Made by a program: the position numbers and the translations under genes
Shown here: positions 1 to 49,199 of the stretch, in pieces
Position numbering within the stretch: the first letter of the stretch is position 1
Layout: every line of letters starts with the position of its first letter
The notes under the pieces: model-generated
Databases searched by the model: none
Seen by the model: only the letters and a program-made list of their open reading frames with translations
What the model was told of the DNA's origin: nothing
Assembly: GCA_029262755.1 (NCBI GenBank)
Contig: JAJCYU010000008.1
Span: forward strand, 114 to 64,113
Length of the DNA: 64,000 nt
Direction of reading: 5' to 3'
Source of the DNA: Anaerolineae bacterium
Lineage (GTDB): Bacteria; Chloroflexota; Anaerolineae; Epilineales; Epilineaceae

Positions 1-2791
1 TGCCTGGGAAGAGGAGTCGGCCGACGACTACGACTTGAAGGTGCTCGACGAGGGCTACCGACTCCTGCGGCCGCGCGAGCACTCGGCGCAGGTGCCGGGC
101 GAGGAGCGCGAGTTCATCGAGCGCGCCTTCAAGGGCAATAGCGAATTGGTCAACACCGTCGTGGCCACGCCGACCCTGGAGATGGGCGTCGATATCGGAG
201 CCCTGGACGCGGTCCTGATGCGCAACGTGCCCCCACTACCGGCGAACTACTGGCAGCGCGCCGGTCGCGCCGGACGCCGCCACCGCATGGCCGTCGTCTT
301 GACCTACGCGCGCGGTGCCAGCCACGACCGCGCCTACTTTGAAGAACCGCTCAAGCTCCTGGGTGGCTCCATCGATCCGCCATCCTTCAATCTGCGCAAC
401 GACGTCATGGTGCGGCATCACGTCCACAGCACGGTATTGAGTTGGCTACATCGCAGGGTGCGCAGTGGTGAGGACCTGACGGAGTTCGATCGCACCGAGG
501 TGGCCGAAGCTCTTGGAAAGGCCTTCCCGCCGCGTGTCAGCGAATACCTGTTCAACGACCGGGGAGAGGTGCGCGCCAAGCCGCGCGAGATGAGCCTGCT
601 GCGTCTCGTGATTAGCAAGCACCAGGGGCTTATCTTCGAGCACGTGGAGTCGGTCTTTGGTCAGGGATGGCCCGAGTTGGATAAGAAGGTCGTCGAAGGT
701 GAGCGTCTCAAGCAGTACGTCGATGAGATGGCCGACGAGCTCGAGGTCGTGGTGCATAGGCTCTTCCGCCGGTTGCAGTGGGCGTTGGGCCAACTCAACC
801 GCCTTGAGGATGTTCGCAAGCGCAAGGGCACGCTCGACAAAGAAGACGAGGCGCTGCGCCGGCGTTGCGACAGGCTCGTGCGCCGGCTCAAGGGGCAAAG
901 CTTCGGCGACAAGGGCTCAGCCGAGGGAGTCGATGGTACATGGACGTACGGCGTGCTGTCCGCAGAAGGATTTCTGCCCGGCTATGGCCTAGATACGGGC
1001 TCGATTGTGGCCTATCACCAGCCGGCCTTCGGCTCCGGTCGGCGCGATTGGGAGTTACGTCGTTCCCAGGCCCTGGCGCTGCGCGAGTACGTGCCCGGTA
1101 ACTTGATCTACGCGGCGGGGCAGAAGTACCTCGCACGTAGGTATCACCTTGCGCTGGAAGGCGAGGATGGCAAGGGCCCGGCTCACTACCTGGTCGACCC
1201 CGCGGCCGAAGCGGTGCGCGAGCTGGACGGCTCGTCGAACGGAATGTCCGCAGGGCTCGGAGGCCAGACGATTACCGCCATCCCTATCAGCGATGTCGAT
1301 GTGCCGCACCACTCGTCCATCAGCGACGACGAGACCTATCGCTTCCAGATGCCGGTCTCGATCTTCGGCTACGAGCAGCCGCAGCACGAAGGCGGCACGG
1401 CTCTGTCCTGGAGCAAGAAGCAGCTCCATCACCGGCGCGGCGTGCGGCTGCGGCTGGTCAACGTCGGAGCCGCCACCCTGGTGCGGTCCAAGGGCGAGCT
1501 TGGCTACCCGGTGTGCATGGCCTGCGGCGCGAGCCGCTCGCCCATGGCTAGCCAGGTCGAGCGGGACAAGTTCGCCGAGACCCATCGCTCCAACTGCGGG
1601 CAGCCCGCGGAGCGCATCGGCTTCTACGCTGATGTCGTGGCCGACGCGCTGTCGTTGGTCGACTGCACCGACCGGACCGAGGCCTATAGCGTGATGGAGG
1701 CGCTGCGCCGCGGCGCGGCCGATATCCTGGAGATGGAAATCGAGGACCTTCAGCTGCTGGCCGTCGGCAAGCCAGGCGAGGAGGCGCTCGACATCCTGCT
1801 CTACGACCCCATGCCCGGCGGCTCGGGACTGCTCGACCAGATGGTCGATCGTTGGGCGGAGGTCGTCGCAGCGGCCAATCTCGTGCTCGATTGTCCCGCG
1901 CAATGCGGCGCGGCCTGCGTGGATTGCCTGCAGCGCTTCCGCAACGCGCACATCCATCGCTACCTTGACCGCCATGCAGCACTGGAGCGGCTCGCCGCTT
2001 GGGGCGCGAAGCTCCAGATGAAGCACGCGATCCCGGCCAAGCTGCCGCAGGCGGCGGAGTCAGGCAGTCCTAAAGCGACCAACATGGCGGAGTCCCGGCT
2101 CGCGGCCATGTTCGAGAAAGCCGGATTCCATGGAGCGATTGCCCAGCACGAGATCGAGATCGGCACGAAGTACAAGCGAACGCTTCCCGACTTTTTCTTT
2201 GAAGATTCGGGTGGGCACACGCTCGGGATCTGCGTCTACCTCGATGGGCTGAGTTTGAAGCTGCATGGCAATCCCAAGACTCAGAAGGCCGATGCCTACA
2301 TTACCGATTGGTTGCTCAATGAGGGCTATGCGGTGCGGCGCATCGCTGCGACTGAGCTCGACGATGCCGGAACGATGGGCAATCACTTCTTCTGGCTGGG
2401 CCAGCGACTTGTGAGTGTCCGGCGCGCCAAGGAGCTTCGCGAGCGGCCCAATGATTGGTTCGTGGGACGCGAGGAGGCGAACAACGGGAGTGACGACCGT
2501 GAAGTGTCCAACTGGGATGAGACAATCGACGGTCTGATCGCAGAGCAGTGGCGCACTTTGGCGCGTGGATTGCGCGACGCCGGCCTTGCGGCACCGGACG
2601 ATGGCGCGGGCGACCTCGTAGCGGACGGGTTGGATGGGCGTATGGCAATCATGGTGTGGCAGACAGATCGCGGAGAAGTTGCACTCATCGAGGAGGGAAC
2701 GCCGACCGACGACCCCCGCCATGTGGCCGCCCGTCCCGAAAGCGATCCCGCAGCGGTGGCGCGGGCCGTTCGCGAGCGGATGGGAGGCTGA
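1..2791 (+). CDS. Giant SF2 (DEAD/DEAH-type) helicase, 5'-partial; only the C-terminal ~918 aa lie in the window. Carries helicase motifs V/VI, a DUF1998/MZB-like zinc-ribbon region, a DUF559 (Vsr/restriction-endonuclease-like) domain and a ~120-aa C-terminal tail
   Basis: The reading frame is open from nt 2, so the gene continues upstream. Motif VI QRAGRAGRR and motif V TPTLEMGVDIG are present. Cys clusters YPVCMACGAS and CPAQCGAACVDCLQRF sit ~100 aa apart, as in DUF1998 of MrfA/DrmA/DruE-type helicases. The C-terminal block KRTLPDFFFEDSGGHTLGICVYLDGLSLKLHG...GYAVRRIAATELDD resembles DUF559. Confidence 0.75.
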   Translation, partial: AWEEESADDYDLKVLDEGYRLLRPREHSAQVPGEEREFIERAFKGNSELVNTVVATPTLEMGVDIGALDAVLMRNVPPLPANYWQRAGRAGRRHRMAVVLTYARGASHDRAYFEEPLKLLGGSIDPPSFNLRNDVMVRHHVHSTVLSWLHRRVRSGEDLTEFDRTEVAEALGKAFPPRVSEYLFNDRGEVRAKPREMSLLRLVISKHQGLIFEHVESVFGQGWPELDKKVVEGERLKQYVDEMADELEVVVHRLFRRLQWALGQLNRLEDVRKRKGTLDKEDEALRRRCDRLVRRLKGQSFGDKGSAEGVDGTWTYGVLSAEGFLPGYGLDTGSIVAYHQPAFGSGRRDWELRRSQALALREYVPGNLIYAAGQKYLARRYHLALEGEDGKGPAHYLVDPAAEAVRELDGSSNGMSAGLGGQTITAIPISDVDVPHHSSISDDETYRFQMPVSIFGYEQPQHEGGTALSWSKKQLHHRRGVRLRLVNVGAATLVRSKGELGYPVCMACGASRSPMASQVERDKFAETHRSNCGQPAERIGFYADVVADALSLVDCTDRTEAYSVMEALRRGAADILEMEIEDLQLLAVGKPGEEALDILLYDPMPGGSGLLDQMVDRWAEVVAAANLVLDCPAQCGAACVDCLQRFRNAHIHRYLDRHAALERLAAWGAKLQMKHAIPAKLPQAAESGSPKATNMAESRLAAMFEKAGFHGAIAQHEIEIGTKYKRTLPDFFFEDSGGHTLGICVYLDGLSLKLHGNPKTQKADAYITDWLLNEGYAVRRIAATELDDAGTMGNHFFWLGQRLVSVRRAKELRERPNDWFVGREEANNGSDDREVSNWDETIDGLIAEQWRTLARGLRDAGLAAPDDGAGDLVADGLDGRMAIMVWQTDRGEVALIEEGTPTDDPRHVAARPESDPAAVARAVRERMGG

Positions 2792-2794
2792 CCA

Positions 2795-4858
2795 ATGCGC
2801 ATCGTGCTCGCCGACACGCTGGCCCAGAGTCTCGAAGCACTCGACAAGTCCGTGCGAGGGCTGGTCAAGCGGAAGGTCTTCGATTTCCAACTCGCGCCGG
2901 CCACATCCGGCAAGAGCTATCACCGCATCGATAAGGCACCGCAGCAAGGCTTCTGGTCCTTCCGCGTCAATCGCGACCTGCGATTGGTCGTCTTTCAGGA
3001 GGGCGACCTACGTGTCCTGTGCCACGTCGCCCACCATGACGACGCCTACGAATGGGCGATGCGTCACCGCTACGAGGAACACCCCAACACGACCGAGATC
3101 CAACTCGTGCGCATCGAGAAATCCGTGCGCGAGGTGATCGAGCGGCGGGTGAAGGTCATCGAAGAGTTGCCCCCCCTCTTCACGAAGCATACCGATGATT
3201 ATCTACTTGCCCTCGGCGTTCCGCCTGTCTGGTTGGACGCCATCAAGCTGGTGACGGAGGACACCCTTCTGGAAGCGCTCGACGAATTGCCCAGCGCCGT
3301 AGCCGAGCGTCTGATGCGGCTTTACGAAGGCAAGCCGGTGCCCCGCCCGGTGATCGCCGCGGGAGCGACGGGCTGGGATCACCCCGACACCGCACGCCAC
3401 TTCCGGGTACTGGGCTCCGAGCGCGAGTTGCAGCAGGCGCTGGAGTTCCCATGGCAGAAGTGGATCGTCTTCCTCCATCCCGAGCAGCGCAAAGTGGCCG
3501 AGCGCACCTTTTCCGGATCGGCTCTGGTGACGGGCGGCGCCGGCACGGGCAAGACGGTGGTCGCGCTGCACCGTGCACAACACCTTGCCGAGGCCAATCC
3601 GAACGCGCGCATCCTGCTGACGACGTTCTCGCGCACGCTGTCTGCAAGCCTCGAGCGCAACGCCCGGGTGCTGATGGGTGAGGACAGCCCGCTGTTGGAC
3701 CGCATTCACGTGGCCAACGTGCATCGCTACGCCGTGGAGGCCTACGAGGAAGCGCACGGCGCAGGACCGCATCTGATCAACGACCAGTCGCTCCAATCGC
3801 GGCTAGCCTCGATCTCGGGCCGGCTTGGATTCGACGAGTTCCCCCTCGACTTCATCGAGGCCGAATGGTGGAACGTCATCGATGCTTGGGGAATCCACGA
3901 TTGGTCGAGCTACCTGACTTTCGCCCGGGTTGGCCGCAAGCAGCGGCTGGGCGCCCGTCAACGGCAGCGGATGTGGCGTGTCTTCGAAGCGATGCTGGGC
4001 GAGTTGCGCGCTGACAACCGACAGACCTACAGTGCGCTTTGCGACACATTGCGCCGTGATGTTGAACATGGCCTAGTGCCCCGCTTCGATCACGTCGTCG
4101 TCGATGAAGCTCAGGACTTTGGACCGGCCGAGCTGCGCCTGCTACGGGCGCTCGTGCTGGAGGGGCCGGACGACCTCTTTCTGAGCGGTGACGCCGGGCA
4201 GCGCATCTTCCAGAGCCGCTTCCCGTGGCTGGCCGCCGATATCGACGTGCGCGGCCGATCGAGCACACTGCGTGTCAACTATCGGACCACCGAGCAAATC
4301 CGTCGCTTCGCAGACCGCATGCGCTTCGTCGTGCACGACGAGGCCGACCCGCTATCGCTTGACGAGGGCGCCGTGTCGCTCCTCGGTGGTCCTGAGCCGA
4401 CACTGATCGGCGCCGACGACAAGGCGGGGGAGATATTGACGCTGTCCACTTGGCTGGAAGAGTTGCTCCAAGACGGCTACCAGCCCGAAGACGTGGCCAT
4501 CTTTGCCCGCACCAAGAAGGTCCGCGACGAGCGGGGGCGCCCGGCCATTGAGCGCTCTGGCGCCCGTGTGCATGAGCTCAACGACGATCGCGAGCCGGAG
4601 GCAGGTTGTGTTTCGCTAGGCACGATGCACCGCGCCAAGGGCCTCGAGTTCAAGGCCGTGGCCGTCGCCGGCTGCGACCGGCGGATGCTGCCGCAGGCGT
4701 GGTTAGCCGAACGCATCGGTGACGCGGCCGAGCGCGAAGCCTTCATCGAGCGCGAACGACACGTCTTCTATGTGGCCTGCACCCGGGCACGCGAGCGGCT
4801 GCTGGTAACGTGGGTCGGGGAGGGGAGCGAGTTTCTGGAGGCAGTAGAACGGGATTGA
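2795..4858 (+). CDS. UvrD/PcrA-like SF1 helicase with an N-terminal RelE/ParE-toxin-like domain (~100 aa)
   Basis: Walker A VTGGAGTGKTVVALHRA, Walker B VVVDEAQDF, NYRTTEQI, GTMHRAKGLEFKAVAV and FYVACTRARERLLVT. The N-terminus VNRDLRLVVFQEGDLRVLCHVAHHDDAYEW follows the RelE/ParE sequence pattern. The ATG lies 4 nt after the upstream stop, with a GGAGG-like site inside the upstream gene's 3' end. Confidence 0.8.
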   Translation: MRIVLADTLAQSLEALDKSVRGLVKRKVFDFQLAPATSGKSYHRIDKAPQQGFWSFRVNRDLRLVVFQEGDLRVLCHVAHHDDAYEWAMRHRYEEHPNTTEIQLVRIEKSVREVIERRVKVIEELPPLFTKHTDDYLLALGVPPVWLDAIKLVTEDTLLEALDELPSAVAERLMRLYEGKPVPRPVIAAGATGWDHPDTARHFRVLGSERELQQALEFPWQKWIVFLHPEQRKVAERTFSGSALVTGGAGTGKTVVALHRAQHLAEANPNARILLTTFSRTLSASLERNARVLMGEDSPLLDRIHVANVHRYAVEAYEEAHGAGPHLINDQSLQSRLASISGRLGFDEFPLDFIEAEWWNVIDAWGIHDWSSYLTFARVGRKQRLGARQRQRMWRVFEAMLGELRADNRQTYSALCDTLRRDVEHGLVPRFDHVVVDEAQDFGPAELRLLRALVLEGPDDLFLSGDAGQRIFQSRFPWLAADIDVRGRSSTLRVNYRTTEQIRRFADRMRFVVHDEADPLSLDEGAVSLLGGPEPTLIGADDKAGEILTLSTWLEELLQDGYQPEDVAIFARTKKVRDERGRPAIERSGARVHELNDDREPEAGCVSLGTMHRAKGLEFKAVAVAGCDRRMLPQAWLAERIGDAAEREAFIERERHVFYVACTRARERLLVTWVGEGSEFLEAVERD

Positions 4859-4906: not shown

Positions 4907-6058
4907 CTACGAAGCGACCTGTAGAGCCTCCAACACAATGAAGCCGTCGATGGCAGCGCTCTCCGGAAGGGCACGCACCTGCTCGTCGAGCTCCATGGGT
5001 CGAACGTTGTGTTCGGCCATCAATTCGTACTGAAGTGCATATCCTTCAAGCACGCCGGCGCGCGCAGTTAGTCGGTTCATGAACGGGACGACCACGTCCA
5101 AGTCTCGCTGTCGTTGCTCGGCCGGCGAAGGCGCCGTGAACCGGTCCCGAATGCGTGACGCCGATAGGGCTGCGCGTGCCTTGTGGACATCCTCGAATTG
5201 GGGCTTGCGGATCGTTCGCTCGTCGTAGTAGGGGCCAAGCTCGCGCCGAAGGTCGTCCAACCGATCGCTCGCGTGATCTGAGTCCTCGTTCGCGAAACTG
5301 AGCCAAGCCGACAGGGTTGTTAGAGATACAGAGTCCACAAAATCGGCGTGCAGGAAGCGATGCGGTTCGTCGCCTAGCAGCAGATCGTTCGCAAAGCGCC
5401 TGGTATGGTCGCGCCACACCTCAATTCCGTCGGCGAGCTCGGAGGCCGCAAGGTTCATTGAGCCCATGTCGGCTTGACAACGGGCGAGGCCGAGTAGGGC
5501 GATGCAGAAGATCTGCTCGTTGGCGTCTGCCACGGTGATCTCCTCGGAATGCGCCAGCGCGTTGCGGTATTGGTGCGTCTTCACCGACAGATCGCGATAG
5601 GCATCCACCAAGACCTCTCGCTGGGCATCACCGTCCGCCATCTGAACCACCTTGGCCACTCGCTCCAGCGCGGCGTGCAGCTCCGCTCGCTCGCGGCGTT
5701 CGAGCAATTCGCGGATGGCTCTGACGTCGCGCGCGACAGATTCAAGGCGCTTCTCTAGCCGGTCCAACATCACGAACAGGGTCGAGAACCCTACGGCCGA
5801 GACGGCCAGGTTGAGTGCGGAGAAGGCCATCGTGGCCTGCATGCCTTGGAGGAGGAGAGGGGCGGATGCCGAAAGACGCGCCAACTCAGCTTGTTGTGGA
5901 ATCACCAGGTGGCGCACGATCTGACCGGCTCCCTCCTCTCCGGCCGCTCGGCGAACGACACCGCCGAGTACGGTGCACCGACGTGCATCTACGCAGGGAA
6001 GGACGTCGAGGGGCAGCGAACGCATGACGTTCATGCCGAGGATGCTCGAGTCGATCAT
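4907..6058 (-). CDS. Hypothetical protein with one predicted TM helix (AFSALNLAVSAVGFSTLFVML) followed by a coiled-coil-like region; start may instead be at 5842
   Basis: Long ORF, hydrophobic segment, no recognisable catalytic motifs. Sits on the same strand downstream of the two PD-(D/E)xK genes. Confidence 0.5.
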   Translation of the reverse strand: MIDSSILGMNVMRSLPLDVLPCVDARRCTVLGGVVRRAAGEEGAGQIVRHLVIPQQAELARLSASAPLLLQGMQATMAFSALNLAVSAVGFSTLFVMLDRLEKRLESVARDVRAIRELLERRERAELHAALERVAKVVQMADGDAQREVLVDAYRDLSVKTHQYRNALAHSEEITVADANEQIFCIALLGLARCQADMGSMNLAASELADGIEVWRDHTRRFANDLLLGDEPHRFLHADFVDSVSLTTLSAWLSFANEDSDHASDRLDDLRRELGPYYDERTIRKPQFEDVHKARAALSASRIRDRFTAPSPAEQRQRDLDVVVPFMNRLTARAGVLEGYALQYELMAEHNVRPMELDEQVRALPESAAIDGFIVLEALQVAS

Positions 6059-6227: not shown

Positions 6228-7067
6228 CTACACAGGGTGCACGTGCTCGATGACATGCACTGCCAGCGTGTTGCGTACCGGAACCAGTTCGTTGGGCAAG
6301 GCTCCTTCGAGCACAAGGGCCGTCTCGACCCCGGTGTCCCTTCCAAGAACCGCGAGCTCTGCCTTCAGCACCGCAGCGTACTTCACACACTGGAACAGTC
6401 CACGTAAGAGGTCAACGGTGGATGCATTGCGTGCCTTGACCTCAACGGCGAGCCAAGTGGCCGGTCCGCGGAAGAGCACGTCAATCTTGTCGGCCGACGG
6501 TAAGCCGTACTCGATCTCGCTGTCGACTCCGTGGGCAAGGCCAACGACCTTCGAGTGCGCCGCCACAAACTTTTTTAGCCGAAGGTGGAGTTCTCCCTCT
6601 CCGCCAGCACGATAGCCGCGTACACGCTCTAGAAGACTGGATGGGACGGCCGGCGGTGCATCCTCAAGATCGAAGTGCGAGAGCACTTGCGGCCAACGAG
6701 AGTAGGCGAAGATCTGGGACCAGAAAGCTAGAGCGAGCTTGCGTTTCGCTCGTAGGGAGCGCGATGCGTAGTCGGGCACGTTTAACGGGTATCCAACGAT
6801 TCCCTCACCTGGCACGCGAGTTTCCTTGCTGACGACAAGGAACTGTATCGGTGGGATCTCCGTTCCCCATCGATCACCTAGCGCGGTGAGATCCCATCCG
6901 ATGGCGCCGAGCACGTAGTTCAGATTGCGTGCGTTTGGCATTCTCAACTCTTCAGCCAAAGCGGAATATGTGATGGGCTGCTCGGCGTGGGCCTGACGCA
7001 CGAGGAGCGGAAGCGCACTACGGGCGCGCCGTTGGTAAAGTTCGTCTCCCTGCATAGTTTGAGCCAT
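6228..7067 (-). CDS. PD-(D/E)xK nuclease-fold protein (restriction-endonuclease-like), otherwise hypothetical
   Basis: C-terminal motif IDVLF...WLAVEVKARN...QCVKY gives D…EVK. Strong RBS GGGAGGAGG before the ATG at 7067 (MAQTMQGDELYQ). The ORF extends to a GTG at 7106. Confidence 0.6.
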   Translation of the reverse strand: MAQTMQGDELYQRRARSALPLLVRQAHAEQPITYSALAEELRMPNARNLNYVLGAIGWDLTALGDRWGTEIPPIQFLVVSKETRVPGEGIVGYPLNVPDYASRSLRAKRKLALAFWSQIFAYSRWPQVLSHFDLEDAPPAVPSSLLERVRGYRAGGEGELHLRLKKFVAAHSKVVGLAHGVDSEIEYGLPSADKIDVLFRGPATWLAVEVKARNASTVDLLRGLFQCVKYAAVLKAELAVLGRDTGVETALVLEGALPNELVPVRNTLAVHVIEHVHPV

Positions 7068-7112
7068 GCGCCTCCTCCCGTGGACATGATGTAGTGAACC
7101 TGGCACGGCAGA

Positions 7113-8555
7113 TCAAACTCCCAGTGGAGCGACTCCCAGCCGCCGATCCCTCGCGTCGCGAATCTCGCACACAGTCTCATGCAGCACGTCGGCCTTCGGC
7201 AGGATCTCGTCGCCGTGCAGCCTCAGCGCCGGTTTCAGCTCATCGACGTACGTGGCGAACACGCGGCAGCCTTCCGGTGCGGCGATGATGAACGAGGCCG
7301 ATCCGACCTGCAAGGCGTAGGAACGGCCTTGCATCGCAGCGTCCTTCCAGTCCTCGCGGCGCACGAGGGAGTGCTTGGCCTCCACGATGGTCAGCAGCCG
7401 GCCTTCGCCGTCGCGAACCAGGTAGTCGATCCGGCCTAGGATGCGCTGCGAGCCGAGTCGGAACTCGCAGGCGTGTTCGCGAATCGAGCGCCCGCCCATT
7501 TTCTTGAGCACGCCTTCGAGGCAGTCCTTGCAGAAGGCGTCCTCGTCCGGATAGTCGCCCGCACGACGAATTCGGTCGAAAGCCGCGGCAGCCACTGAAG
7601 GGGTGGCCGTCTCCGATGGGCTTTCACCTTGCAGCAACTCATGAAGTCGTACGCGCATGCGCGGCGGGATCGACTCCGCTACCAAGCCGTTGAATCGTGA
7701 CTTGACGAGGCCCCATTGCGCGAGCACCTCGTCGGCCATCATCTCCGCGAAGGTCAAGTGACCTGAACTATCGACACGCCGAAGGTCCACGTTGCACGCA
7801 CGCCACCGCGCTAGCGGATCGATGCCGGGCAACCCATCCACCTCAAACACATCGGTGATCGCCCGAGTGTCTGCCATCCGGTACACGTAAACCTTTTCGC
7901 CCGGCGCCATCTCCATTCGCCCAGACCAGGTGACCGTCTCGTTCTCGAGCTCCGCGTAGTCACCCGGCTTGCAGGCAACTAGCCACGCCCGCTCGCCGTC
8001 GCCGCGCCGCACGTGCAGCGGGATCAGGTCGTCGTAGAGGAAGCGCCAGAGGCGAAACTGAAGCTCGAAGCGATCTCGCGGACGCTTGAGAAGAGTGCCG
8101 ACTGAGGTCCGGCGCGGCCACCACTCCTCCGCCAACTCAAAGAGTGCGTCACCGATTTTGCGCCATCGGTCGAGAGCGCGCTGTCCGCTGCCGAAGGCAT
8201 GAAACGAAAACGCGAGACGCGGTTCTGCGGCGCTAAGGAAGGCGAGTCCATCGAAGAGCTCGCGGTCGTAGTACGGCGCGCGCCACAGAAGGAAGTGGTC
8301 TGGATGGGCACGCGCCAACATCGCGGTGGACTCTACGAGCTTGCCGCGAAGTGTCTTGCTGCGGCGCACGCGACCGTAGGCCGTCGCGGGTGTGTCACGG
8401 TCCAGGTTGGCCAGGACGCGTGGCTTCCTCTTGTAGCCATATCGGATCTGGTCGACCAGTGCCCGCGGCTCGATTCGCCGGAAGCGCTCGTACGACGATA
8501 GATCCGCCTCGGCCGCTCGGGCGATGAGGCGTTCGAGCATGACGTTGGCGTTCAT
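7113..8555 (-). CDS. Hypothetical two-domain protein: central possible PUA-like (EVE/ASCH-type) barrel plus C-terminal PD-(D/E)xK nuclease domain
   Basis: GRIDYLVRDGEGRLLTIVEAKHS gives D…EAK. The central segment WLVACKPGDYAELENETVTWSGRMEMAPGEKVYVYR is EVE-like. RBS GGAAGGAG lies 8 nt before the ATG at 8555 (MNANVMLERL). Confidence 0.6.
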   Translation of the reverse strand: MNANVMLERLIARAAEADLSSYERFRRIEPRALVDQIRYGYKRKPRVLANLDRDTPATAYGRVRRSKTLRGKLVESTAMLARAHPDHFLLWRAPYYDRELFDGLAFLSAAEPRLAFSFHAFGSGQRALDRWRKIGDALFELAEEWWPRRTSVGTLLKRPRDRFELQFRLWRFLYDDLIPLHVRRGDGERAWLVACKPGDYAELENETVTWSGRMEMAPGEKVYVYRMADTRAITDVFEVDGLPGIDPLARWRACNVDLRRVDSSGHLTFAEMMADEVLAQWGLVKSRFNGLVAESIPPRMRVRLHELLQGESPSETATPSVAAAAFDRIRRAGDYPDEDAFCKDCLEGVLKKMGGRSIREHACEFRLGSQRILGRIDYLVRDGEGRLLTIVEAKHSLVRREDWKDAAMQGRSYALQVGSASFIIAAPEGCRVFATYVDELKPALRLHGDEILPKADVLHETVCEIRDARDRRLGVAPLGV

Positions 8556-9089
8556 GGTGAGCACTCCTTCCTATCATGCCGAAGTCAGTGCTGAAACGCG
8601 GGACCGTCCGCACGATACAGTGTGCCGTGCCCACCGTCATGTGGGTTCTCCAGCAGCGGATCAGCTGCGCGGTCAGCCGGCCAACTCGGAGCTTGCGTTG
8701 CGCTCAACTGACCGTCGGCCTCGCTCGGTCCAAATCGTCGCCCCAAAACGAAAAATCTTAGGGCCAAGGTGCCACGCCCAAGCGCCTTACGGTCTCGCCC
8801 AACGCCAAGGATTAATGCGGTGCGGGTTTCTTATTGTCGTTTGGCGAAAGCGGGTTGAACGGCGAGTGGAGGCTGTATGGGGGTAAACAATGGTGTTGGA
8901 ACGGACGGGCCGTCGCTTTCGGGGATGAAATCGCCGACTTCATTGATCCCAAGGAGGTGCTCCGTGGTCGGATAGAGGCGGTATGAGACGAGCGCCCTGA
9001 CTCCACAACTGTACGATGGTCCTTCGCTGAGATGCTGACTAGACACAAGCGAGGCTCGGCAACGCGCTCGTACGATCGTCCCCGAATCG

Positions 9090-10159: not shown

Positions 10160-10785
10160 GTGTCCACTCGGCTGTACCACCTCACCCATGGCAGCAACCT
10201 GGCGGCGATCATCGCGCAGGGTGGATTGCGCTGCAAGCGGCAATTGCGGGAGGCCAACGTCGACCATCGAGACGTCGCGCGGCGCCCCCTGCAGGAGAGG
10301 AGATCCACCAGGCAGGTTCGTAAAGGGCCTGGCGGCACACTCCACGATTTCGTGCCTCTCTACTTCGCGCCGCGACCGCCCATGCTTTACGCGCTACTCG
10401 ATCCGAAGAGGCCAGATGGTCCTGTCGACGAACGCGCGATGAACTATCTGGTCACCGACACAGACATGGTCGAGCGTCACGAGCGACCCTTCGTCTTCAC
10501 CGATGGCCACGCGGTGATGGGGTTCACGCAGTTCCACAACAGTCTTGATGAACTGCCTCTGCTGGACTGGGAGGTCATTGAAAGCAGAGACTGGGCGGAC
10601 ACTAACGACGATCCGGACCGAAAGCGACGCAAGCAAGCCGAATTCCTCATTGCCGAGGAGGTTCCCTGGGCGATGATTCAGGAGATGGAGTCTTCGATGA
10701 GGTTGTCGAAGCCCGCGTTCGCGAGATCGTGCGCCAGGCCGGATCGGATCACGAGCCGACGGTACGCGTGCAACCCGGCTGGTAA
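10160..10785 (+). CDS. darT: DarT (DUF4433) ssDNA thymidine ADP-ribosyltransferase toxin with an apparent 1-nt frameshift near 10679–10689 (pseudogene or sequencing error)
   Basis: N-terminus VSTRLYHLTHGSNLAAIIAQGGL is the DUF4433 signature. Frame A runs through EFLIAEEVPWAMIQ. A second frame then reads GVFDEVVEARVREIVRQAGSDHEPTVRVQPGW*, which matches a DarT C-terminus. The span is 626 nt, one short of 3n. GTG start. Confidence 0.75.
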
Positions 10786-10808
10786 TATCATGTTGGAGGG
10801 AGGTCCCG

Positions 10809-11870
10809 ATGATCGAGCTTGGACGTGGCAACATTCTAGAGGTCGAAGCCGAGGCGCTCGTGAACACCGTCAACTGCGTCGGTGTTATGGGCAAGGGCAT
10901 CGCTCTGCAGTTCAAGCGGGCCTTTCCGCACAATTACGCTGCCTACCGGAAAGCGTGCGACGCAGGCGACGTCGCCCCTGGACGAATGCACGTCCATGCG
11001 ACGTCATCCTTGGTCGGGCCTCGGATCATCATCAACTTCCCGACGAAGCGCCACTGGCGCAATCCTTCTCAACTGGACGACGTCACGGAAGGGCTACGCG
11101 ACCTCGTCTGGATCGTGCGGGAGCACGGGATTCAGTCGATTGCGGTACCTCCGCTCGGATGCGGCAATGGCGGCCTTGATTGGGCGCAGGTGGAACCGCT
11201 CATCCGGAAGGCGTTCGAGCCGCTCGAAACAGTGCGCGTCATTCTCTATACGCCTGGTTACGCGCCCAGCGCGCGCGAGCGCCGACCGGCGCCCGGAGCG
11301 TGGAAGTGGACACCTGCCCGATCGCTGATGGTGCAGCTGATGGATGCTTACCGTCAGGGCGAGTACCGACTAAGCCTGCTTGAGATACAGAAACTCGCCT
11401 ACTTCATGCAGGAGGCGGGCGAGCCGATGAAGTTGAACTTCGTCAAGGCCGTGTACGGGCCGTACGCGGACAACGTGAGCCACCTGCTCCAGTCGATGGA
11501 AGGCCACGCGATCGATGGGGCAACAGACGAGCGGTCACCCGAAACGGAGATCGGGCTGCTCGAAGGCGCGGCCGAAGAGGCCCGCGACTATGCGATCGAT
11601 TCGTCTACGGTGGGCAGGCTCACTAGGGTGCTCAGCCTTATCGAAGGCTTCGAGACGCCGTATGGGATGGAGCTGCTCGCTTCGGTGCATTGGGTAGCGC
11701 GCGAGAGCGTGACCCACGAGAGGCCGTTGAATGACGATGCGCTTGTTCAGGCTATTCACGCCTGGAACGAGCGGAAGCGTCGATTGCTCAAGCCGGAGCA
11801 CATTCGCGTTGCGGCGAAGCATCTGCGCGCTCATGGTTGGATGGGCCAGTCATTGGCCGTGCCGGCCTAG
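10809..11870 (+). CDS. darG: DarG antitoxin (N-terminal macrodomain, ADP-ribosyl-DNA glycohydrolase)
   Basis: ILEVEAEALVNTVNCVGVMGKGIALQFKRAFP is a macrodomain signature. GGAGG RBS. Position is immediately after darT. Confidence 0.85.
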   Translation: MIELGRGNILEVEAEALVNTVNCVGVMGKGIALQFKRAFPHNYAAYRKACDAGDVAPGRMHVHATSSLVGPRIIINFPTKRHWRNPSQLDDVTEGLRDLVWIVREHGIQSIAVPPLGCGNGGLDWAQVEPLIRKAFEPLETVRVILYTPGYAPSARERRPAPGAWKWTPARSLMVQLMDAYRQGEYRLSLLEIQKLAYFMQEAGEPMKLNFVKAVYGPYADNVSHLLQSMEGHAIDGATDERSPETEIGLLEGAAEEARDYAIDSSTVGRLTRVLSLIEGFETPYGMELLASVHWVARESVTHERPLNDDALVQAIHAWNERKRRLLKPEHIRVAAKHLRAHGWMGQSLAVPA

Positions 11871-13036: not shown

Positions 13037-15868
13037 TCAGGAGGTCTCGTCGCTCCCTCCGCCGCCGTCCCCGCCGCCCGTACCACCGCCCTCCTGCGCC
13101 ACCCGCCGCATGATGCGCCGTGCCACGCGCTCGATCCCGAGCGCAGCGCCCTCCGCGCGCGCCGCCGCGTGCGCCTGCGTGCGCAGCGGCTCGAGGACCC
13201 GGTCGTAGTCCTCCACGGCGAGGTCGAGGTGACCTTCGGCGGCACCGACGATCCACGCCGCCTCCTCGCCGCGGTCGAGGTCCAGGCACGTTATGGCGAG
13301 AGCGGCCAAGGCGAGGCAGATGTAATTCTCCGTCCCGAGGTTCTGTTCCGAGCGTAGCAGGTAGTCCAGGCTATTGAGGAGGATGGGCATGGCGTCTCGC
13401 GTTCGTCCGTCCAGGGCCAGGGAGGCGGCCCACTCGGTCTTCGACTTGGCGACCATGTCGCGGTTGCCCAACGCGGCGTAGCCTTCGATTGCGCTGCATG
13501 CATGCTCCGCGGCGGCGCCGGGTTCGCCGAGCCGGCGATAGCAGATGGCGACCATGCTGTGGGCGCCCGCCTCGTACTGCTGGTAGCGGATGCCGCGGAA
13601 GACGTCCAGCGCCTCCTGGAAGCCGGCGAGCGATTCCTCGAGCCGCCCTTGTTGCATGCGCAGATTGGCCAAGGTGGCTAGTGAGGTGCCGAGCGTCACC
13701 GAGTTGATGTCGCTGCGGTCTAGGCCGAGGACCTCCTCCAGCAGTTGCTCCGCCCTCGACGCAAGGCCGATGTTGGATGCCGTAAGGGCCGCTGTCTGCA
13801 GCGCCTGACCAAGGCCACGTGAGGTGCCTTCCTCGCGTACGAGAGCCAATCTGCGCAGGGCCGCCTCGTAGGCTGCTTCCCGCTTGTTTTGAAATTTCAG
13901 GAGCGAATGCTCGATATACGCCGCAAGCCGCCGTTCCTCGGGGCCGTCGGCACCGTGGGCCAGAACGTGCGCTTCTTCCAACAACGTCATCGCGGCCTGC
14001 GACTCACCACGGACATAGAGCTGGCGTCCCAGGGAACAAAGTGCCCGCGCTCGAAGAAGGCTCTGCTCGGCAGGCGTATCCCGTTCCAAGAGCACGTGCG
14101 CGAGCGCGAGCAGATCGGGCATCGCATAGCGCACCGTCCAGTAGGCGATGACGTTCGCGAAGACCTTCATGCCCGCGGTCACGTCGCCCTCGGTGCTTGC
14201 CCAGCGCAGCGCGGCGAGGAGGTTGTCGCGATCGCGATCGAGCCGATCCAGCGTATCCGACATCGCCTCTCCCCTCAGGCCGTCTCTCGCTGAATCGCAC
14301 AGCGCCGCGGCCCACGCGAGATGCCGCTCGCGCAGCCGGACCTCGGCGCCCGCTTCGGCCAGGCGCTGCGCGGCGAACGCGCGCACCGACTCCAGCAGGT
14401 CGTAGCGCGGGGGGGTGTCGTCGGTGTCCACAGTCACCAGCGATTTCTCGACGAGCTCGCTGAGCAGGTCCAGCACCGCCCAATCCTCGACCGCCTCGCC
14501 GGCGCAGACGGCCTCCGCCGCCTCCAGGTCGAAGCCGCCGGCGAAGACGCACAGTCGTTGCAGCAGCGCCTGCTCGGGCTCGTCGAGCAGGCGGTAGCTC
14601 CAGTCCAGCGTCTCGTGCAGGGCCTGGTGGCGGGGCAGTGCCGTGCGCCGGCCGGCGGTGAGCAGGCGGAAGCGCTGGTCGAGGCGGTCGAGGATCTGCC
14701 GGGGCGACATCGCCTTTACCCGCGCCGCCGCCAACTCGATGGCCAGCGGCAGACCGTCCAGGCGCCGGCAGAGCTCCACCACGTCGGCCGTGTTGCCGGC
14801 GTCGAGCGCGAAGTCGCGCCGAACAGCCTTCGCGCGGTCGAGAAAGAGTCGTACCGCGGCGTAGTCCGCGGCCGTTTCGGGTGTCGGGGGCGCTTCGTTC
14901 TCGGGCGGCGCGCTGAGGGCCGGCACGGCGTAGACGTGCTCGCCGTCAACGCGCAAGGCCTCGCGGCTGGTGGCCAGGACGCTCAGGCCGGGATGGGCCA
15001 TGGCGAGCGATTCGACGAGCGTCGCGCAGGAATCGATGACATGTTCGCAGTTGTCGAGCAGCAGCAGGAGCCGGCGCTCCTGCAGGAAGTCGTGCAGGGT
15101 GGCCTCCAGCGGCCGTCCCGGCTGCTCGCGCAGGCCGAGGCCCGCGGCCACCGATTCGACCACGCCCGCGCCGGGCTGGAGGGACGCAAGGTCAACCAGC
15201 CACGCGCCCTGCGGGAAGCTGCGCAAGGCCTGGAGCGCGGCGTGCAGCGCCAGCCGCGTCTTGCCCGTGCCGCCGGGGCCGGTGAGGGTGACGATGCCGT
15301 GGCGCCCGATGGCCTCCGTGACATGGGCCAACGAGCGCTGGCGCCCCACGAAGCTGCTGCGCCCGCGCGGAAGATTGTGCGGCGGGTCGGCGGAGCCGGC
15401 GGCGACGGGCGCGCCGGCCGGGGGCCCGGCGAGGTCGGCGTCGGAGCCGAACCCAGAGCGGGCGCGTTGGGCGGCGGCCTCGTCGCCCAGCGCGCGGTGC
15501 ACGCTCTCGGCCAGGCGGGGCAGGGCGGCGTCGAAGCCGAGGGCATGAGCGTCCACGTACTGGATGCGCCCGAGCTGGAAGTGCAGCTCGGTGGGCTGGA
15601 GCAGCACGGGCAGCACCGGCGTGCCGCGATCCAGGGCGTGCTGCCACTCGTCCTCGACGTTGGAGGAGGCCATGGCCGCCGGCGTCACGACGAGGATGAG
15701 GACGTCCGCCGAACGTAGCGCCTCTTGGATGGCCGTGCTCCAGCGCGCGCCGCCGTGGATGCCCTCACGGTCGATCCACGGCTCGATGCCGTGCGCGGGC
15801 AGGGCGGCGGCCAGGCGACGCGTAAACGGCTCGTCGCAGCGAGCGTAGCTGAGGAAGGCGCGGATCAT
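13037..15868 (-). CDS. TIR–NB-ARC–TPR STAND NTPase (bacterial TIR-domain STAND; candidate antiviral sensor with NADase effector)
   Basis: TIR domain FLSYARCDEP...WIDREGIHGGARW...ADVLILVVTPAAMASSNVEDEW contains the catalytic-Glu motif. P-loop GPGGTGKTRLAL, Walker B LLLLLDNCEH, LATSRE, then multiple TPR-like repeats. The ATG shares an ATGA overlap with the upstream ATPase stop. Confidence 0.85.
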   Translation of the reverse strand: MIRAFLSYARCDEPFTRRLAAALPAHGIEPWIDREGIHGGARWSTAIQEALRSADVLILVVTPAAMASSNVEDEWQHALDRGTPVLPVLLQPTELHFQLGRIQYVDAHALGFDAALPRLAESVHRALGDEAAAQRARSGFGSDADLAGPPAGAPVAAGSADPPHNLPRGRSSFVGRQRSLAHVTEAIGRHGIVTLTGPGGTGKTRLALHAALQALRSFPQGAWLVDLASLQPGAGVVESVAAGLGLREQPGRPLEATLHDFLQERRLLLLLDNCEHVIDSCATLVESLAMAHPGLSVLATSREALRVDGEHVYAVPALSAPPENEAPPTPETAADYAAVRLFLDRAKAVRRDFALDAGNTADVVELCRRLDGLPLAIELAAARVKAMSPRQILDRLDQRFRLLTAGRRTALPRHQALHETLDWSYRLLDEPEQALLQRLCVFAGGFDLEAAEAVCAGEAVEDWAVLDLLSELVEKSLVTVDTDDTPPRYDLLESVRAFAAQRLAEAGAEVRLRERHLAWAAALCDSARDGLRGEAMSDTLDRLDRDRDNLLAALRWASTEGDVTAGMKVFANVIAYWTVRYAMPDLLALAHVLLERDTPAEQSLLRARALCSLGRQLYVRGESQAAMTLLEEAHVLAHGADGPEERRLAAYIEHSLLKFQNKREAAYEAALRRLALVREEGTSRGLGQALQTAALTASNIGLASRAEQLLEEVLGLDRSDINSVTLGTSLATLANLRMQQGRLEESLAGFQEALDVFRGIRYQQYEAGAHSMVAICYRRLGEPGAAAEHACSAIEGYAALGNRDMVAKSKTEWAASLALDGRTRDAMPILLNSLDYLLRSEQNLGTENYICLALAALAITCLDLDRGEEAAWIVGAAEGHLDLAVEDYDRVLEPLRTQAHAAARAEGAALGIERVARRIMRRVAQEGGGTGGGDGGGGSDETS

Positions 15869-16431
15869 GGACGCCACCCCCACAACGCCCCCACGGGCAC
15901 GGCATGGATGTTCGCCGCGAAGGGCACGACCTCGCTGCCGCCGTAGATCACCAAGCCGCGGTGGAAGCGCTCGCCGGCCAGTTCGGCGAAGGCGCGGATG
16001 CCGCGCAGGTGACGATCGGAGAGGGAGGTGGAGGCCTTCACCTCGATGGCCACGCAGCGGCCCTGAGCGTCTTCCAGGATGAGGTCAACTTCCCGTCCTC
16101 GATGCGTGCGCAGGTGGTGGAGGTGGGCGCGCGTCGTCGACCAACCCAGCTGCTTGGCGATCTCCGTCGACACGAAGGTCTCGAGCAACGGGCCGATGGG
16201 CGTGGGCTCGGTGCGCAGACGCTCCGGGCTCAAGCCCAGGAGGTGGGCCGCAAGGCCGGAGTCGCTGATCACGGTCGCGTCGTCCAACGGGAGATAGCGT
16301 GCGGGGAGGGCCTCTTCCGCAAGGGCGCGGACGAGCGTGCTCTTGCCGACCTGCCGCGCGCCCGACAGGAAGACGACGGGCGTATCGGCAAGTGCGGCCA
16401 GCAAAGGTGGTGTTAGGGCGCGGGGCTTCAT
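15865..16431 (-). CDS. Short DUF4143-family ATP-binding protein: Walker A followed directly by the DUF4143/PD-(D/E)xK module, with the central AAA region missing
   Basis: FLSGARQVGKSTLVRAL, and VDLILEDAQGRCVAIEVKAS gives D…EVK. Only 188 aa, versus ~400 aa for typical COG1373 members. Confidence 0.7.
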   Translation of the reverse strand: MKPRALTPPLLAALADTPVVFLSGARQVGKSTLVRALAEEALPARYLPLDDATVISDSGLAAHLLGLSPERLRTEPTPIGPLLETFVSTEIAKQLGWSTTRAHLHHLRTHRGREVDLILEDAQGRCVAIEVKASTSLSDRHLRGIRAFAELAGERFHRGLVIYGGSEVVPFAANIHAVPVGALWGWRP

Positions 16432-30744: not shown

Positions 30745-31296
30745 ATGGCGAGCCGATACAATTTCGAGGCATACGATCCGGCATGGCCGGCGGCCTTCGA
30801 GCGCGAGGCGGAGCGGTTGCGCGCGCTTCTCGGCGACGCGCTGGTCGCGATTCATCACGTGGGCAGCACATCGGTGCCCGGATTGGCGGCCAAACCGATC
30901 ATCGACCTGCTGCCGTTGGCGAGCACGATCGAGCACATCGACCGGGCATCGCCGGTCATGGTGGACGCAGGCTACCGGGCCTGGGGTGAGTACCACCTGC
31001 CTGGGCGGCGCTATTTTACACGCGACCGGGACGGGTGGCGCACACACAACGTGCATATCTACGCCGTGGACAATCCCGACGTCCCGCGCCACATCGCGCT
31101 GCCCGCCTACTTGCGGGCGCACGACGACAAGGCTGCGGAGTACGCGACCCTCAAGCGCGAGGCCTACCGGCTGCACCCGGCCGACATCGACGCATACAAC
31201 GATGCGAAGGACGCGTGGATCAAGGCGCTGGAGCCCGTAGCGCTCGCGTGGTGGCGGTCCGCGGGCGGGGATGTGGGCGCCGATCCGGTGTCATGA
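30745..31296 (+). CDS. grpB: GrpB-family (UPF0157) nucleotidyltransferase-fold protein
   Basis: AAGGAGG RBS. YDPAWPAAFEREAERLRALLGDALVAIHHVGSTSVPGLAAKPIIDLL. Confidence 0.7.
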   Translation: MASRYNFEAYDPAWPAAFEREAERLRALLGDALVAIHHVGSTSVPGLAAKPIIDLLPLASTIEHIDRASPVMVDAGYRAWGEYHLPGRRYFTRDRDGWRTHNVHIYAVDNPDVPRHIALPAYLRAHDDKAAEYATLKREAYRLHPADIDAYNDAKDAWIKALEPVALAWWRSAGGDVGADPVS

Positions 31297-31324
31297 GATG
31301 GGGGGACCGGGGGTTAGGGAGGGC

Positions 31325-33598: not shown

Positions 33599-33719
33599 GG
33601 CGGGCGTTGGTGGGACTCGTCCCTTTGGGGAGGGGAGCGTGTCCATAGCAACGGGCGGAAACGTAGTCGTGGGCGGCATGGGGATGCGCGCTGGGACCGT
33701 GAACTTGGGGGAGGCAGCA

Positions 33720-44600: not shown

Positions 44601-45035
44601 GTGGCGCTGGCCGTGCGCTCCGACGGCGGCGCGGTCGACGGCGGCCTCGTCCTGCTCGACACGACCGATCCGCTTTCGCCGACGGTCGCCGGCCGCTGGG
44701 CGCGTAGCGGCGACGAGCCGGGAGCGCTGGCTCGCTTCGTGGCGCTGACCGAGGCGGAGATTCCGGGGCTGGGGGATGACGGTGGTAGCGGCGACGCACG
44801 TCGCGATCGCACGGTCGCGGCACGCGTGGCGCAAGCCGAGGCTCGGGTCGTGGCGTGGATAACCGGAGAGCGGACGCTCTTTGCGTTGGACGTGACGGAC
44901 ATCGCGGCGCCGCGCCTGCTCGCCGAGCTGCGGATGCCGGCCGGCGGTCTGACCGGACTGGCGGCGGACGGCGCGCGTGCGATCGTGCTGCACCGCACGC
45001 GCGGCGCGATCATCGTGGACTTGATGGCGCGCTGA
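41673..45035 (+). CDS. Large secreted LVIVD-repeat protein, paralog 3 (1120 aa; start may be at 41727)
   Basis: LARWDVSDPAAPIAGARL, LWIANADPAAPTLIAEA, LLAVDVADSSAPLALAEA, LFALDVTDIAAPRLLAEL. Signal-like VVLLMLVLGAAGPWG. Confidence 0.6.
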   Translation: MHAGPLLHRPRAAAILARMSAPVPPPVSPTGAPRNARTAPLRSQRLRRRIAPPVVLLMLVLGAAGPWGARRPVAGQEPPTVTLSGQIGGLALDVAVVAAGSADGAASLRVAVGPRVLALDVGTTAGADGAPPVTTTATSPLLPGLVRAVAVAEDGRTVVVGDAFGVAVWDGSSDVLRRTLDAFDGRAVTVIGARAVVATREGEIRVVDLADDGGGAPDATLAVATAAPAVARGTAENVVAAARVGDTWWVAVQASDELPVAWLVPIALVGAESPSPGAPVPLEALVQDVSATADGGLLVLQERLGLARWDVSDPAAPIAGARLSPEGLDAPLRGVVADRDDPQTAWLLGGFAGVLDGDGNSGTGRVWRMALPEPGDSAAPSVAAVVATDRIADRGVALGGGLLWALHGDTALSAVRTTDGAPPSGNAPTRIGSAWASVGLVRGTAARPDGRVAVAAGPAGVWLLADQGAAGYAVVDGPWSVGGEADAVAWDAEGRLWVSMQRPGAVQVLELPSTPGDDPVSLGRLEGLGTPVDLALDEERRLLYVADAETGLWIANADPAAPTLIAEAAELTEAWAIVPDVDRVWVAGGDRGIYWIDTLNPAATRSVYSANTPGTAFGLARFGSHLLVADLEGGLQTIRTLAGRPMAGGSLALGQVVDVAAVGSFGYAAVTGVGVFEFDAQDIRVLTARRAVRVPGLVRRLESIEARVGGRLLATAGTGGLSWLAVQAPPGLPTQTPRPTATATPTPPPPAFIPWAGTGREETPLRLKDRAMFTAEELGGRALGGVALRGARAVLGLANVRGGPRAGLALLALDEVPPRLFGRHEGLDVAPRDLLFDGALVAVAAWTDGLQLVSVDSLGRFTTAGSLSMTLRAGAVAQGEEGTLYVGGTRLDAGPRGGLLAVDVADSSAPLALAEARLPDAGAMAYSDGALFVLDYTAGLRVFDARTVGALTEAVTIPAPGAADIAAHVASDGRVRVALAVRSDGGAVDGGLVLLDTTDPLSPTVAGRWARSGDEPGALARFVALTEAEIPGLGDDGGSGDARRDRTVAARVAQAEARVVAWITGERTLFALDVTDIAAPRLLAELRMPAGGLTGLAADGARAIVLHRTRGAIIVDLMAR

Positions 45036-48879: not shown

Positions 48880-49075
48880 TGACGTGGCCCACGCCCCGTG
48901 GCGGGGGAAGTCCGGTGAGAGTCCGGCGCTGTCGCGCAACGGTAACCACGCTCGCCGCGAGTGGATGGAATGGGGAGATCGGCCTAGACGTCGGCCACCC
49001 TGATCGCTTCGCTCGCACTTCGTGGAAGCCCGAGTACCCGTCCGGTGGTGTTCGTCCCATCAGCCCTCGCGTACC
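48880..49075 (+). ncRNA. Cobalamin (AdoCbl) riboswitch candidate in the 5' leader of the DUF4430-like/ECF operon
   Basis: GGGAAGTCCGGTGAGAGTCCGGCGCTGTCGCGCAACGGTAA matches the cobalamin-riboswitch core (GGGAA..GGTG.AA.TCC..GC.G.C.CGCAAC.GTAA). The downstream GGAAGCCCGAGTACCCGTCC is a degenerate B12-box-like segment. Confidence 0.55.
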
Positions 49076-49199
49076 GGGGCTCGCGGACGAGGACCGGACG
49101 ACCCGGACCGTGAGCGTGCCCGACACGCAACGGCCGACGTAGCGGCCCCCGCCCTCGGCACCCCGGCGCACCGACCCCCGTGCCGGAGGCGCCGTCTCA

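Follow-up and report, generated by a model that had tools for sequence, protein, structure and literature searches.

An ArmD-like protein with a RelE/YoeB-like domain ahead of its UvrD-type helicase at the end of an Anaerolineae contig

In a stretch of 64,000 nucleotides from an Anaerolineae bacterium (contig JAJCYU010000008.1 of assembly GCA_029262755.1, positions 114 to 64,113; hereafter the window), a single uninterrupted reading frame at 2795..4858 on the + strand, with no stop or frame change, encodes a protein of 687 amino acids in which a RelE/YoeB-like domain precedes a helicase of the UvrD type (superfamily 1, SF1). A RelE/ParE fold at this N-terminus had been proposed in an earlier note made from the letters of the DNA, and the proposal was borne out by AlphaFold2 modelling, Foldseek, a profile search of the PDB and Pfam matches of family members. 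The same note knew of no described helicase with such a fusion, a statement overturned by the ArmD protein of ARMADA type II (PMC12458937, 2025) and by the IMG database, where many family members are labelled 'mRNA-degrading endonuclease RelE...'. The window protein is thus a new and distant relative within the ArmD family, the RelE-helicase fusion itself having been described in 2025. It is considered probable, with some reserve, that its open reading frame (ORF) is of the ArmD type and forms the last gene of an anti-phage operon resembling ARMADA type II, that it is co-transcribed and translationally coupled with an ArmC-like helicase-nuclease gene, and that its RelE-like domain is a YoeB-type ribonuclease (RNase).

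The RelE/YoeB-like domain, the linker and the helicase core

The protein was divided into three parts as follows, with coordinates of the window and the evidence used:

2795..3061, + strand: RelE/YoeB-like domain of the ArmD-like protein, amino acids 1-89 (AlphaFold2, Foldseek against the PDB, profiles, Pfam, conservation)
3062..3475, + strand: family-specific extension and linker, amino acids ~90-227 (secondary structure of the model, invariant columns, conservation counts)
3476..4858, + strand: UvrD/GajB-like SF1 helicase core, amino acids ~228-687 (Pfam, PADLOC, motifs, AlphaFold2/Foldseek)
4856-4858, + strand: ArmD stop codon

The region to which the earlier note had assigned the RelE/ParE pattern, 2795-3090, corresponds to residues 1-98, namely the RelE-like core (amino acids 1-89) and the beginning of an extra hairpin, and the peptide quoted there, RVNRDLRLVVFQEGDLRVLCHVAHHDDAYEW, to residues 57-87 of the 687-amino-acid protein. 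An AlphaFold2 model of amino acids 1-110 was built with a family alignment of 38 sequences covering the first ~110 residues (A2), and reached a predicted local distance difference test score (pLDDT) of 92.9 and a predicted template modelling score (pTM) of 0.86. Its topology is β-α-α-β-β-β-α, with three long antiparallel strands ahead of α3, followed by the additional β-hairpin, with secondary structure elements at β1 2-5, α1 7-14, α2 18-33, β 53-57, β 62-69, β 72-80 and α3 81-89. This is the fold of the RelE/ParE superfamily, a compact β-α-α-β-β-β(-α) arrangement in which an antiparallel sheet of three or four strands lies against a helical hairpin at the N-terminus. When the model was compared with the PDB using Foldseek, all 20 matches at E<=0.001 were toxins of the RelE, YoeB, RelK, YafQ, HigB or ParE type or close relatives, and nearly all of the top 50 matches also fell within the RelE/ParE superfamily. 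The best match was YoeB (2a6r; E 3e-5, template modelling (TM) score on the target 0.70), with a probability of 1.00 for the top matches and TM-scores on the target of 0.65-0.73 for the toxin matches. The RelE-like domain of Cami1 bound to the 70S ribosome (8phj) was also among the matches (E 0.014, TMq 0.59). Structure prediction and the fold search thus returned a RelE/ParE fold and no known UvrD accessory domain, the alternative that the earlier note had named.

Sequence comparison of the family gave the same picture. When 1.84 billion cluster representatives were searched by phmmer with residues 1-222, 1604 proteins were detected at E<=0.001, 728 of them at E<=1e-10, the full-length ones being 675-720 amino acids long. 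The A2 profile matched seven chains among the PDB sequences, all of them RelE-superfamily toxins: YoeB (8yxv, the best at E 0.0076), Thermus thermophilus RelE, RelK, two Helicobacter toxins, a HigB-type 'killer protein' and RelE3. When the 38 family members were scanned singly against Pfam, matches were obtained to HigB-like_toxin (22/38, best 2e-7), ParE_like (13/38), YoeB_toxin (10/38) and ParE_toxin (5/38). A resemblance of the N-terminus to the RelE/ParE superfamily well beyond chance is confirmed at the level of sequence profiles and predicted structure.

Conservation was counted over 153 aligned family N-termini. The candidate catalytic residues of the window domain are H43, R44, R57, R63, H80, H81 and Y85, and the most conserved positions of the domain were the following:

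Position 43: H or E, 113 + 31 of 145
Position 44: R or K, 93 + 45 of 145
Positions 54-55: W-S, 126/147 and 133/147
Position 57: R, 139/150
Position 61: D, 130/151
Position 63: R, 150/151
Position 80: H, 134/152
Position 81: H, 150/152
Position 84: A, 151/152
Position 85: Y, 151/152
Position 87: W, 151/152

A hidden Markov model (HMM) alignment to Escherichia coli YoeB placed position 43 at E46, R57 at R59 and R63 at R65, and the H81...Y85 pair lies in the C-terminal helix, where YoeB carries H83 and Y84. The catalytic residues of YoeB, which we take to be E46, R65, H83 and Y84, are therefore present in the ArmD-like family, either as such or as equivalents. In E. coli ArmD the residues equivalent to H43, R57, R63, H81 and Y85 of the window protein are E48, R62, R68, H88 and Y92. 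Judged from sequence, the near-invariance of these positions is likely to reflect an active RNase.

Behind the RelE-like domain come a strictly conserved β-hairpin (amino acids 91-106, with H96-P97-x-T99-G/T100-x-x-Q103), a helix at 108-119 and a small helical region with the conserved motifs DYLLALGVP, LPxEAAERL and HPDxxRRF; no Pfam or NCBIfam family matched amino acids ~90-227. Over amino acids ~228-685, Pfam detected UvrD-helicase (4.8e-18), UvrD_C (1.2e-18) and AAA_19, and both Walker A (GAGTGKT, K253) and Walker B (DEAQD, D437) are intact. The NCBIfam matches were partial and far below threshold, being restricted to PcrA, UvrD, Rep, HelD and helicase IV, and the PADLOC models GajB (up to 7e-24) and NERD+UvrD matched the helicase core only. 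The full-length AlphaFold2 model (pLDDT 88.2, pTM 0.83) matched UvrD, PcrA and Rep over its helicase part with Foldseek E of about 1e-20 and, together with the two UvrD Pfam families, upholds the naming of this part as a UvrD helicase.

The ArmC-like gene, ARMADA type II and the wider family

The gene upstream of armD and its junction with armD were described as follows:

1..2791, + strand: 3' part (about 929 codons) of an ArmC-like YprA/DruE-family helicase gene (frame open to window base 2)
2782..2797, + strand: gene junction with Shine-Dalgarno sequence, armC stop and armD start (read directly from the sequence)

The Shine-Dalgarno sequence GGGAGG (2782-2787) lies inside the end of armC, 7 bases ahead of the armD ATG (2795-2797), and the armC stop codon TGA (2789-2791) leaves an intergenic gap of 3 nt. 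The start site is supported by homologues from many sources which align from residue 1. Since the Shine-Dalgarno sequence is located within armC and the spacing is only 3 nt, co-transcription and coupled translation of armC and armD are indicated. The neighbours of armD are this large helicase gene, ending 3 nt before the ATG, and downstream a convergent gene for a 383-amino-acid JukB-like protein. No small antitoxin-like ORF was present beside armD among the flanking genes, according to the ORF list and PADLOC, and the 687-amino-acid ORF does not have the form of a type II toxin-antitoxin module, in which a separate small toxin gene adjoins an antitoxin gene. No Rfam family matched, and no consensus terminator was found 3' of armD.

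The earlier note had passed over this YprA/DruE-like gene, which defines the system. Pfam detected in it the second half of Helicase_C and MZB/DUF1998, the Zn-binding module of MrfA, and its best PADLOC match was DruE3 (2.5e-57), using the PADLOC version of 2023, which holds no ARMADA models. The fragment shares 51% identity with a 1988-amino-acid protein of one of the related loci fetched for comparison (L003; these loci are numbered with the prefix L) and 24% identity (E 3e-34) with E. coli ArmC. Its C-terminus carries a conserved P-D...Y-L-D-G...H-G block, a putative Vsr-type nuclease; no Pfam match for a Vsr nuclease was obtained there, and a profile of this region matched a single PDB entry, 3r3p (a Vsr-like mobile-intron protein), at a weak E of 0.36, the same entry being given for ArmC in PMC12458937.

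ARMADA type II was described as four genes in the strict order armA-armB-armC-armD (Bell et al., bioRxiv Sept 2025, PMC12458937). ArmA is a BrxHII/RapA-like (SNF2) helicase, ArmB a PglX-like methyltransferase and ArmC a YprA-like helicase with a C-terminal Vsr-type nuclease, and ArmD was assigned its RelE domain from an HHpred match to 3BPQ_D (E 0.0085) and its helicase from a match to 8IUD (6e-32) (PMC12458937). Deletion of any one of the four genes abolishes protection, as does the Walker A mutation K266A in E. coli ArmD, and D454N weakens it; the protection is direct and non-abortive, with no membrane damage or metabolic arrest (PMC12458937). In enterohaemorrhagic E. coli (EHEC) EDL933, armD was also needed, with a slightly milder phenotype, in a study in which the RelE domain is not mentioned (mBio 2026, PMC13463889).

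A tblastn search of plasmids located an ArmD for comparison as the last gene of a canonical cluster on the E. coli IncY plasmid NZ_LT985234.1, in the order DEAD/DEAH helicase, 1644-amino-acid SAM-dependent methyltransferase, 2113-amino-acid DEAD/DEAH helicase and 704-amino-acid helicase. The Walker A K at 266 and the Walker B D at 454 of the latter are exactly the residues mutated in PMC12458937. By BLASTP, amino acids 2-681 of the window protein align with 7-701 of this ArmD (33% identity, E 9e-100), and the N-terminal 222 amino acids are 29% identical. The window thus has a YprA-family helicase with DUF1998/MZB directly upstream of armD, as in ARMADA type II. In the three loci with a full-length close armC followed by armD (L003, L005, L011), a PglX-like methyltransferase gene lies upstream of armC, armA being out of range; other close armC homologues adjoin Eco57I/PglX-like methyltransferases and SNF2 helicases. 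On homology and neighbourhood, the armC/armD pair was filed as ARMADA type II-like, any armA and armB lying beyond the contig end.

In the same three loci further genes are inserted between the methyltransferase and armC, namely an OLD-like AAA_21 ATPase with DUF4276 (L003:118-4037), GmrSD (L005:5-4243) and an AAA_21 ATPase (L011:1-3950). It should also be noted that on three independent contigs (L085:8889-14335, L086:8344-14317, L087:3574-8979) the gene call splits the YprA-like helicase into two neighbouring ORFs, the first for a DEAD/RecA1 part of 286-504 amino acids and the second for a Helicase_C-MZB part of about 1440-1490 amino acids; an SNF2 helicase and/or PglX-like methyltransferase is present at these loci, and no ArmD.

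The earlier note had suggested a search for the same fusion in other genomes, and this returned more than 6000 clusters at E<=1e-60 with the same ~680-700-amino-acid architecture, from many phyla and independent assemblies. Related loci were collected with a four-sequence alignment (A1), and partner genes were classified in 169 fetched loci, of which about 107 had at least 3 kb of upstream sequence; as the sample is biased to sequences like the N-terminal 222 residues of the window protein, its proportions are indicative only. In 88 of the about 107 loci, genes for a ~1020-amino-acid BPTD_3080-family restriction endonuclease (NCBIfam NF046055, scoring 1348 bits where the cut-off is 800) and a ~940-amino-acid N6/N4 methyltransferase lie upstream of the helicase gene on the same strand, and a YprA-like gene is upstream in about eight. 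Identity of the window protein is highest (46-55%) with the copies adjacent to YprA, HNH and AddA genes, the BPTD_3080-linked copies reaching at most 43%.

The helicase gene is the last of the BPTD_3080/methyltransferase/helicase trio (for example L066:2447-12070, L084:4034-12094 and most of L001-L169), its product bearing the RefSeq name '3'-5' exonuclease', and no paper mentioning BPTD_3080 was found in the literature search. Cargo genes of the defence type often occur inside this operon, either between methyltransferase and helicase or between restriction enzyme and methyltransferase (L007, L010, L020, L036, L045, L052, L059, L066, L073), and encode PDC-M32A, SoFic, a SIR2-like protein, or an AAA ATPase with an S8 subtilase; such variable cargo between conserved genes suggests an insertion hotspot. 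In a relative with 53% identity, the helicase gene overlaps by 4 nt, and is translationally coupled with, a preceding gene for a 570-amino-acid HNH-domain protein (L170:7605-11425; L171:815-4635), and the two may form a nuclease-helicase module.

Two other candidate contexts were rejected. The AddA-like/SbcC genes found at L006, L032, L035 and L047 look like housekeeping repair genes of related Trueperaceae genomes and were dropped as a partner system. A compact two-gene system of a short YprA and ArmD without a methyltransferase (L082:8790-15753, L088:7071-12742, L089:4183-9551) proved to consist of 5'-truncated armC copies with no RecA1 (neither Walker A nor DExH), each followed by an intact armD. 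Alignment of these armC copies with full-length relatives covers no more than the 3' half of the latter, and the L082 copy has a frame break; the loci look like decaying systems which have retained the helicase gene.

Proposed role and alternative explanations

In the proposed explanation, the RelE-like domain would be a functional YoeB-type endoribonuclease, as the near-invariant positions and the C-terminal H/Y pair suggest. As there is no antitoxin gene, either the helicase or the ArmC partner would have to hold the RNase domain in check in cis. The methyltransferase/helicase-nuclease part of the system would mark self DNA and engage unmodified foreign DNA, and ATP-driven translocation by ArmD could bring the RNase to the site or unmask it there. 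The RNase would then cleave invader-associated RNA, either nascent transcripts or the mRNA of coupled ribosomes, and translation in the cell as a whole would not be shut off; such local delivery could reconcile a toxin-type RNase with a non-abortive phenotype. By analogy, Cami1 on the 70S ribosome may be regarded as a precedent for a RelE-like domain working within a large protein.

Several points weigh against this proposal. The normal site of action of RelE/YoeB RNases is the ribosomal A site, into which a fusion of 75 kDa may not fit. The window sequence taken alone matched the Pfam families YoeB_toxin (E 0.083) and ParE_like (E 0.099) below threshold, and its match to YoeB 8yxv in the PDB had an E of 0.32. 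The source contig, which is 64,451 bp long according to the record of a 100%-identical protein in the public collection, ends inside armC, so that this gene is cut and armA and armB are out of view, and the system could be incomplete, some relatives having kept armD beside 5'-truncated armC remnants. Most of the sampled RelE-UvrD helicases lie outside ARMADA, and a mechanism specific to ARMADA may not define the function of the family. The non-abortive phenotype in E. coli argues against a classical toxin role, and neither PMC12458937 nor PMC13463889 describes an ArmD mutated in its RelE-like domain.

The chief alternative, which we hold to be rather unlikely, is that the RelE-like domain is a binding module instead of a nuclease, serving as a docking surface for a partner, as a ParE-like protein binder or as a sensor of infection on RNA or ribosomes, with the conserved polar residues engaged in binding. 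The Pfam matches to ParE_like and ParE_toxin (13 and 5 of the 38 members) would fit it, since ParE toxins are not RNases, as would the reported defence without abortive infection or metabolic arrest. A generic adaptor or sensor would also agree with upstream partners as different as YprA, the BPTD_3080 restriction endonuclease with its methyltransferase and the HNH protein, and free toxins have nothing equivalent to the strictly conserved extra hairpin or to W87. The conserved positions, however, coincide with the YoeB/RelE catalytic set and are not scattered over the surface, and the best matches in sequence and structure are of the RNase type (YoeB, RelK, RelE, YafQ, HigB), ahead of ParE.

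It is improbable that the locus is a decayed or partial one, an armD remnant beside a truncated armC without armA or armB and with no current function in defence. Such pairs do exist at L082, L088 and L089, where armC lacks RecA1 and armD is intact, and the window armC is cut at the contig end. All 929 visible armC codons and 687 armD codons are nevertheless uninterrupted, all conserved motifs are intact, the two genes remain coupled by the Shine-Dalgarno sequence and the 3-nt spacing, and assemblies commonly break within large genes, which is no sign of decay. Hardly credible is a fusion artefact, in which a toxin gene was joined to a helicase gene by error, or an ordinary UvrD accessory domain such as NERD or the N-terminus of HelD. 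The architecture is unusual, and the best PADLOC helicase model is NERD+UvrD, but that alignment begins only at amino acid 230 and the fold search yields RelE-type toxins, not NERD or HelD; the same architecture recurs in the more than 6000 clusters from independent assemblies, and the window frame has neither a stop nor a frame change.

A broader proposal, which goes beyond the assignment of the window gene to an ARMADA type II-like operon, is put forward as a tentative possibility. The RelE-UvrD helicase could be a portable terminal module recruited by many nuclease-based defence operons, in which an active, antitoxin-free YoeB-type RNase gated by the helicase would link DNA restriction to local RNA cleavage. 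Its partners would be the BPTD_3080/methyltransferase set, by far the commonest in the sample, and also the HNH protein and the ARMADA armABC genes.

The defence island and comparison with known systems

The left end of the contig is a defence island containing the ArmC/ArmD-like pair, a JukB-like gene, DarTG and a TIR-STAND protein. The gene convergent with armD (window 4907-6058, - strand) encodes the 383-amino-acid protein matched by the PADLOC JukB model (E 2.5e-16). Between it and DarTG lie two adjacent genes (6228-7106 and 7113-8564, both - strand) for proteins of 292 and 483 amino acids with no Pfam family, the longer with weak Cas4-like PD-(D/E)xK matches in PADLOC (E 0.004), and the two may constitute another defence pair. 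DarT (E 4e-53) and DarG (E 1.8e-126) form a toxin-antitoxin/defence pair at 10160-11870 (+ strand). The listed darT ORF (10160-11179) overruns the darG start at 10809, the DarT match covering its first ~176 residues only. At 13037-15883 (- strand) a 948-amino-acid protein of Avs-like architecture was predicted, composed of TIR, STAND NTPase (NB-ARC/nSTAND1) and TPR parts, where the GC content rises to 0.68-0.74. Further into the window, at 31271-36116, 41673-45035 and 49022-53250 (+ strand), large ORFs of 775, 897, 1120, 848 and 561 amino acids gave no Pfam match at E<=1e-5, and some of these may be spurious in sequence of 60-74% GC.

With these results, an anonymous 'UvrD helicase' has become recognisable as a defence gene. 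Two points are of interest: what the conserved RNase-like site does, and the membership of most relatives in a different gene set resembling restriction-modification. ARMADA has so far been characterised only genetically, and the conserved RelE-like residues offer direct targets for mutants; from these it would be seen whether an RNase of the toxin type can contribute to a defence that is restriction-like and non-abortive. The prevalent pairing with the BPTD_3080-type restriction-modification set suggests a general accessory role for ArmD-like proteins in immunity based on methylation.

Among known systems, Druantia type III comprises DruE and DruH, with PLD-type nuclease domains in III-A, and has no UvrD-like fourth gene; in the window the best PADLOC match of the upstream gene is to DruE3, yet an ArmD-like helicase follows, any DruH gene being out of view because the contig is cut. 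With GajB, UvrD, PcrA and Rep, the window protein shares the fold and motifs of the helicase core (UvrD 4c2t, Foldseek 1e-20). In contrast to it, GajB has no RelE-like N-terminal domain and is partnered by the OLD-family nuclease GajA, and no GajA-like gene is adjacent to armD in the ORF list or PADLOC results, as would be expected of Gabija; the window core is also short, at ~460 amino acids compared with ~650 in UvrD.

The toxins YoeB, RelE, RelK, YafQ and HigB are ribosome-dependent mRNA endonucleases, with which the window domain has in common the fold and the W-S-x-R...R-L-V core motif. A free type II toxin of this kind is ~85-90 amino acids long, whereas the window domain is fused to a hairpin, a linker and a 460-amino-acid helicase. 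Closer in construction is Cami1, a CRISPR-associated CARF-RelE protein (8phj), in which a RelE-fold RNase likewise sits inside a larger defence protein, is regulated in cis and not by an antitoxin. Cami1 is controlled by a CARF sensor of cyclic oligoadenylate and not by a helicase, and there is no sequence relation beyond the fold.

The nearest counterpart is ArmD of E. coli NCTC 12900 and EDL933 (WP_000218177.1). The window protein differs from it in having H43 where E. coli has E48, and its relatives at L003, L005 and L011 differ in carrying extra defence genes between armB and armC. Both proteins consist of a RelE-like N-terminal domain, a linker and a GajB/UvrD-like helicase (687 compared with 704 amino acids), both have kept Walker A and Walker B (K253 and D437 in the window, K266 and D454 in E. 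coli), and in both cases the gene closes the operon, immediately behind that of an MZB-bearing YprA-family helicase.

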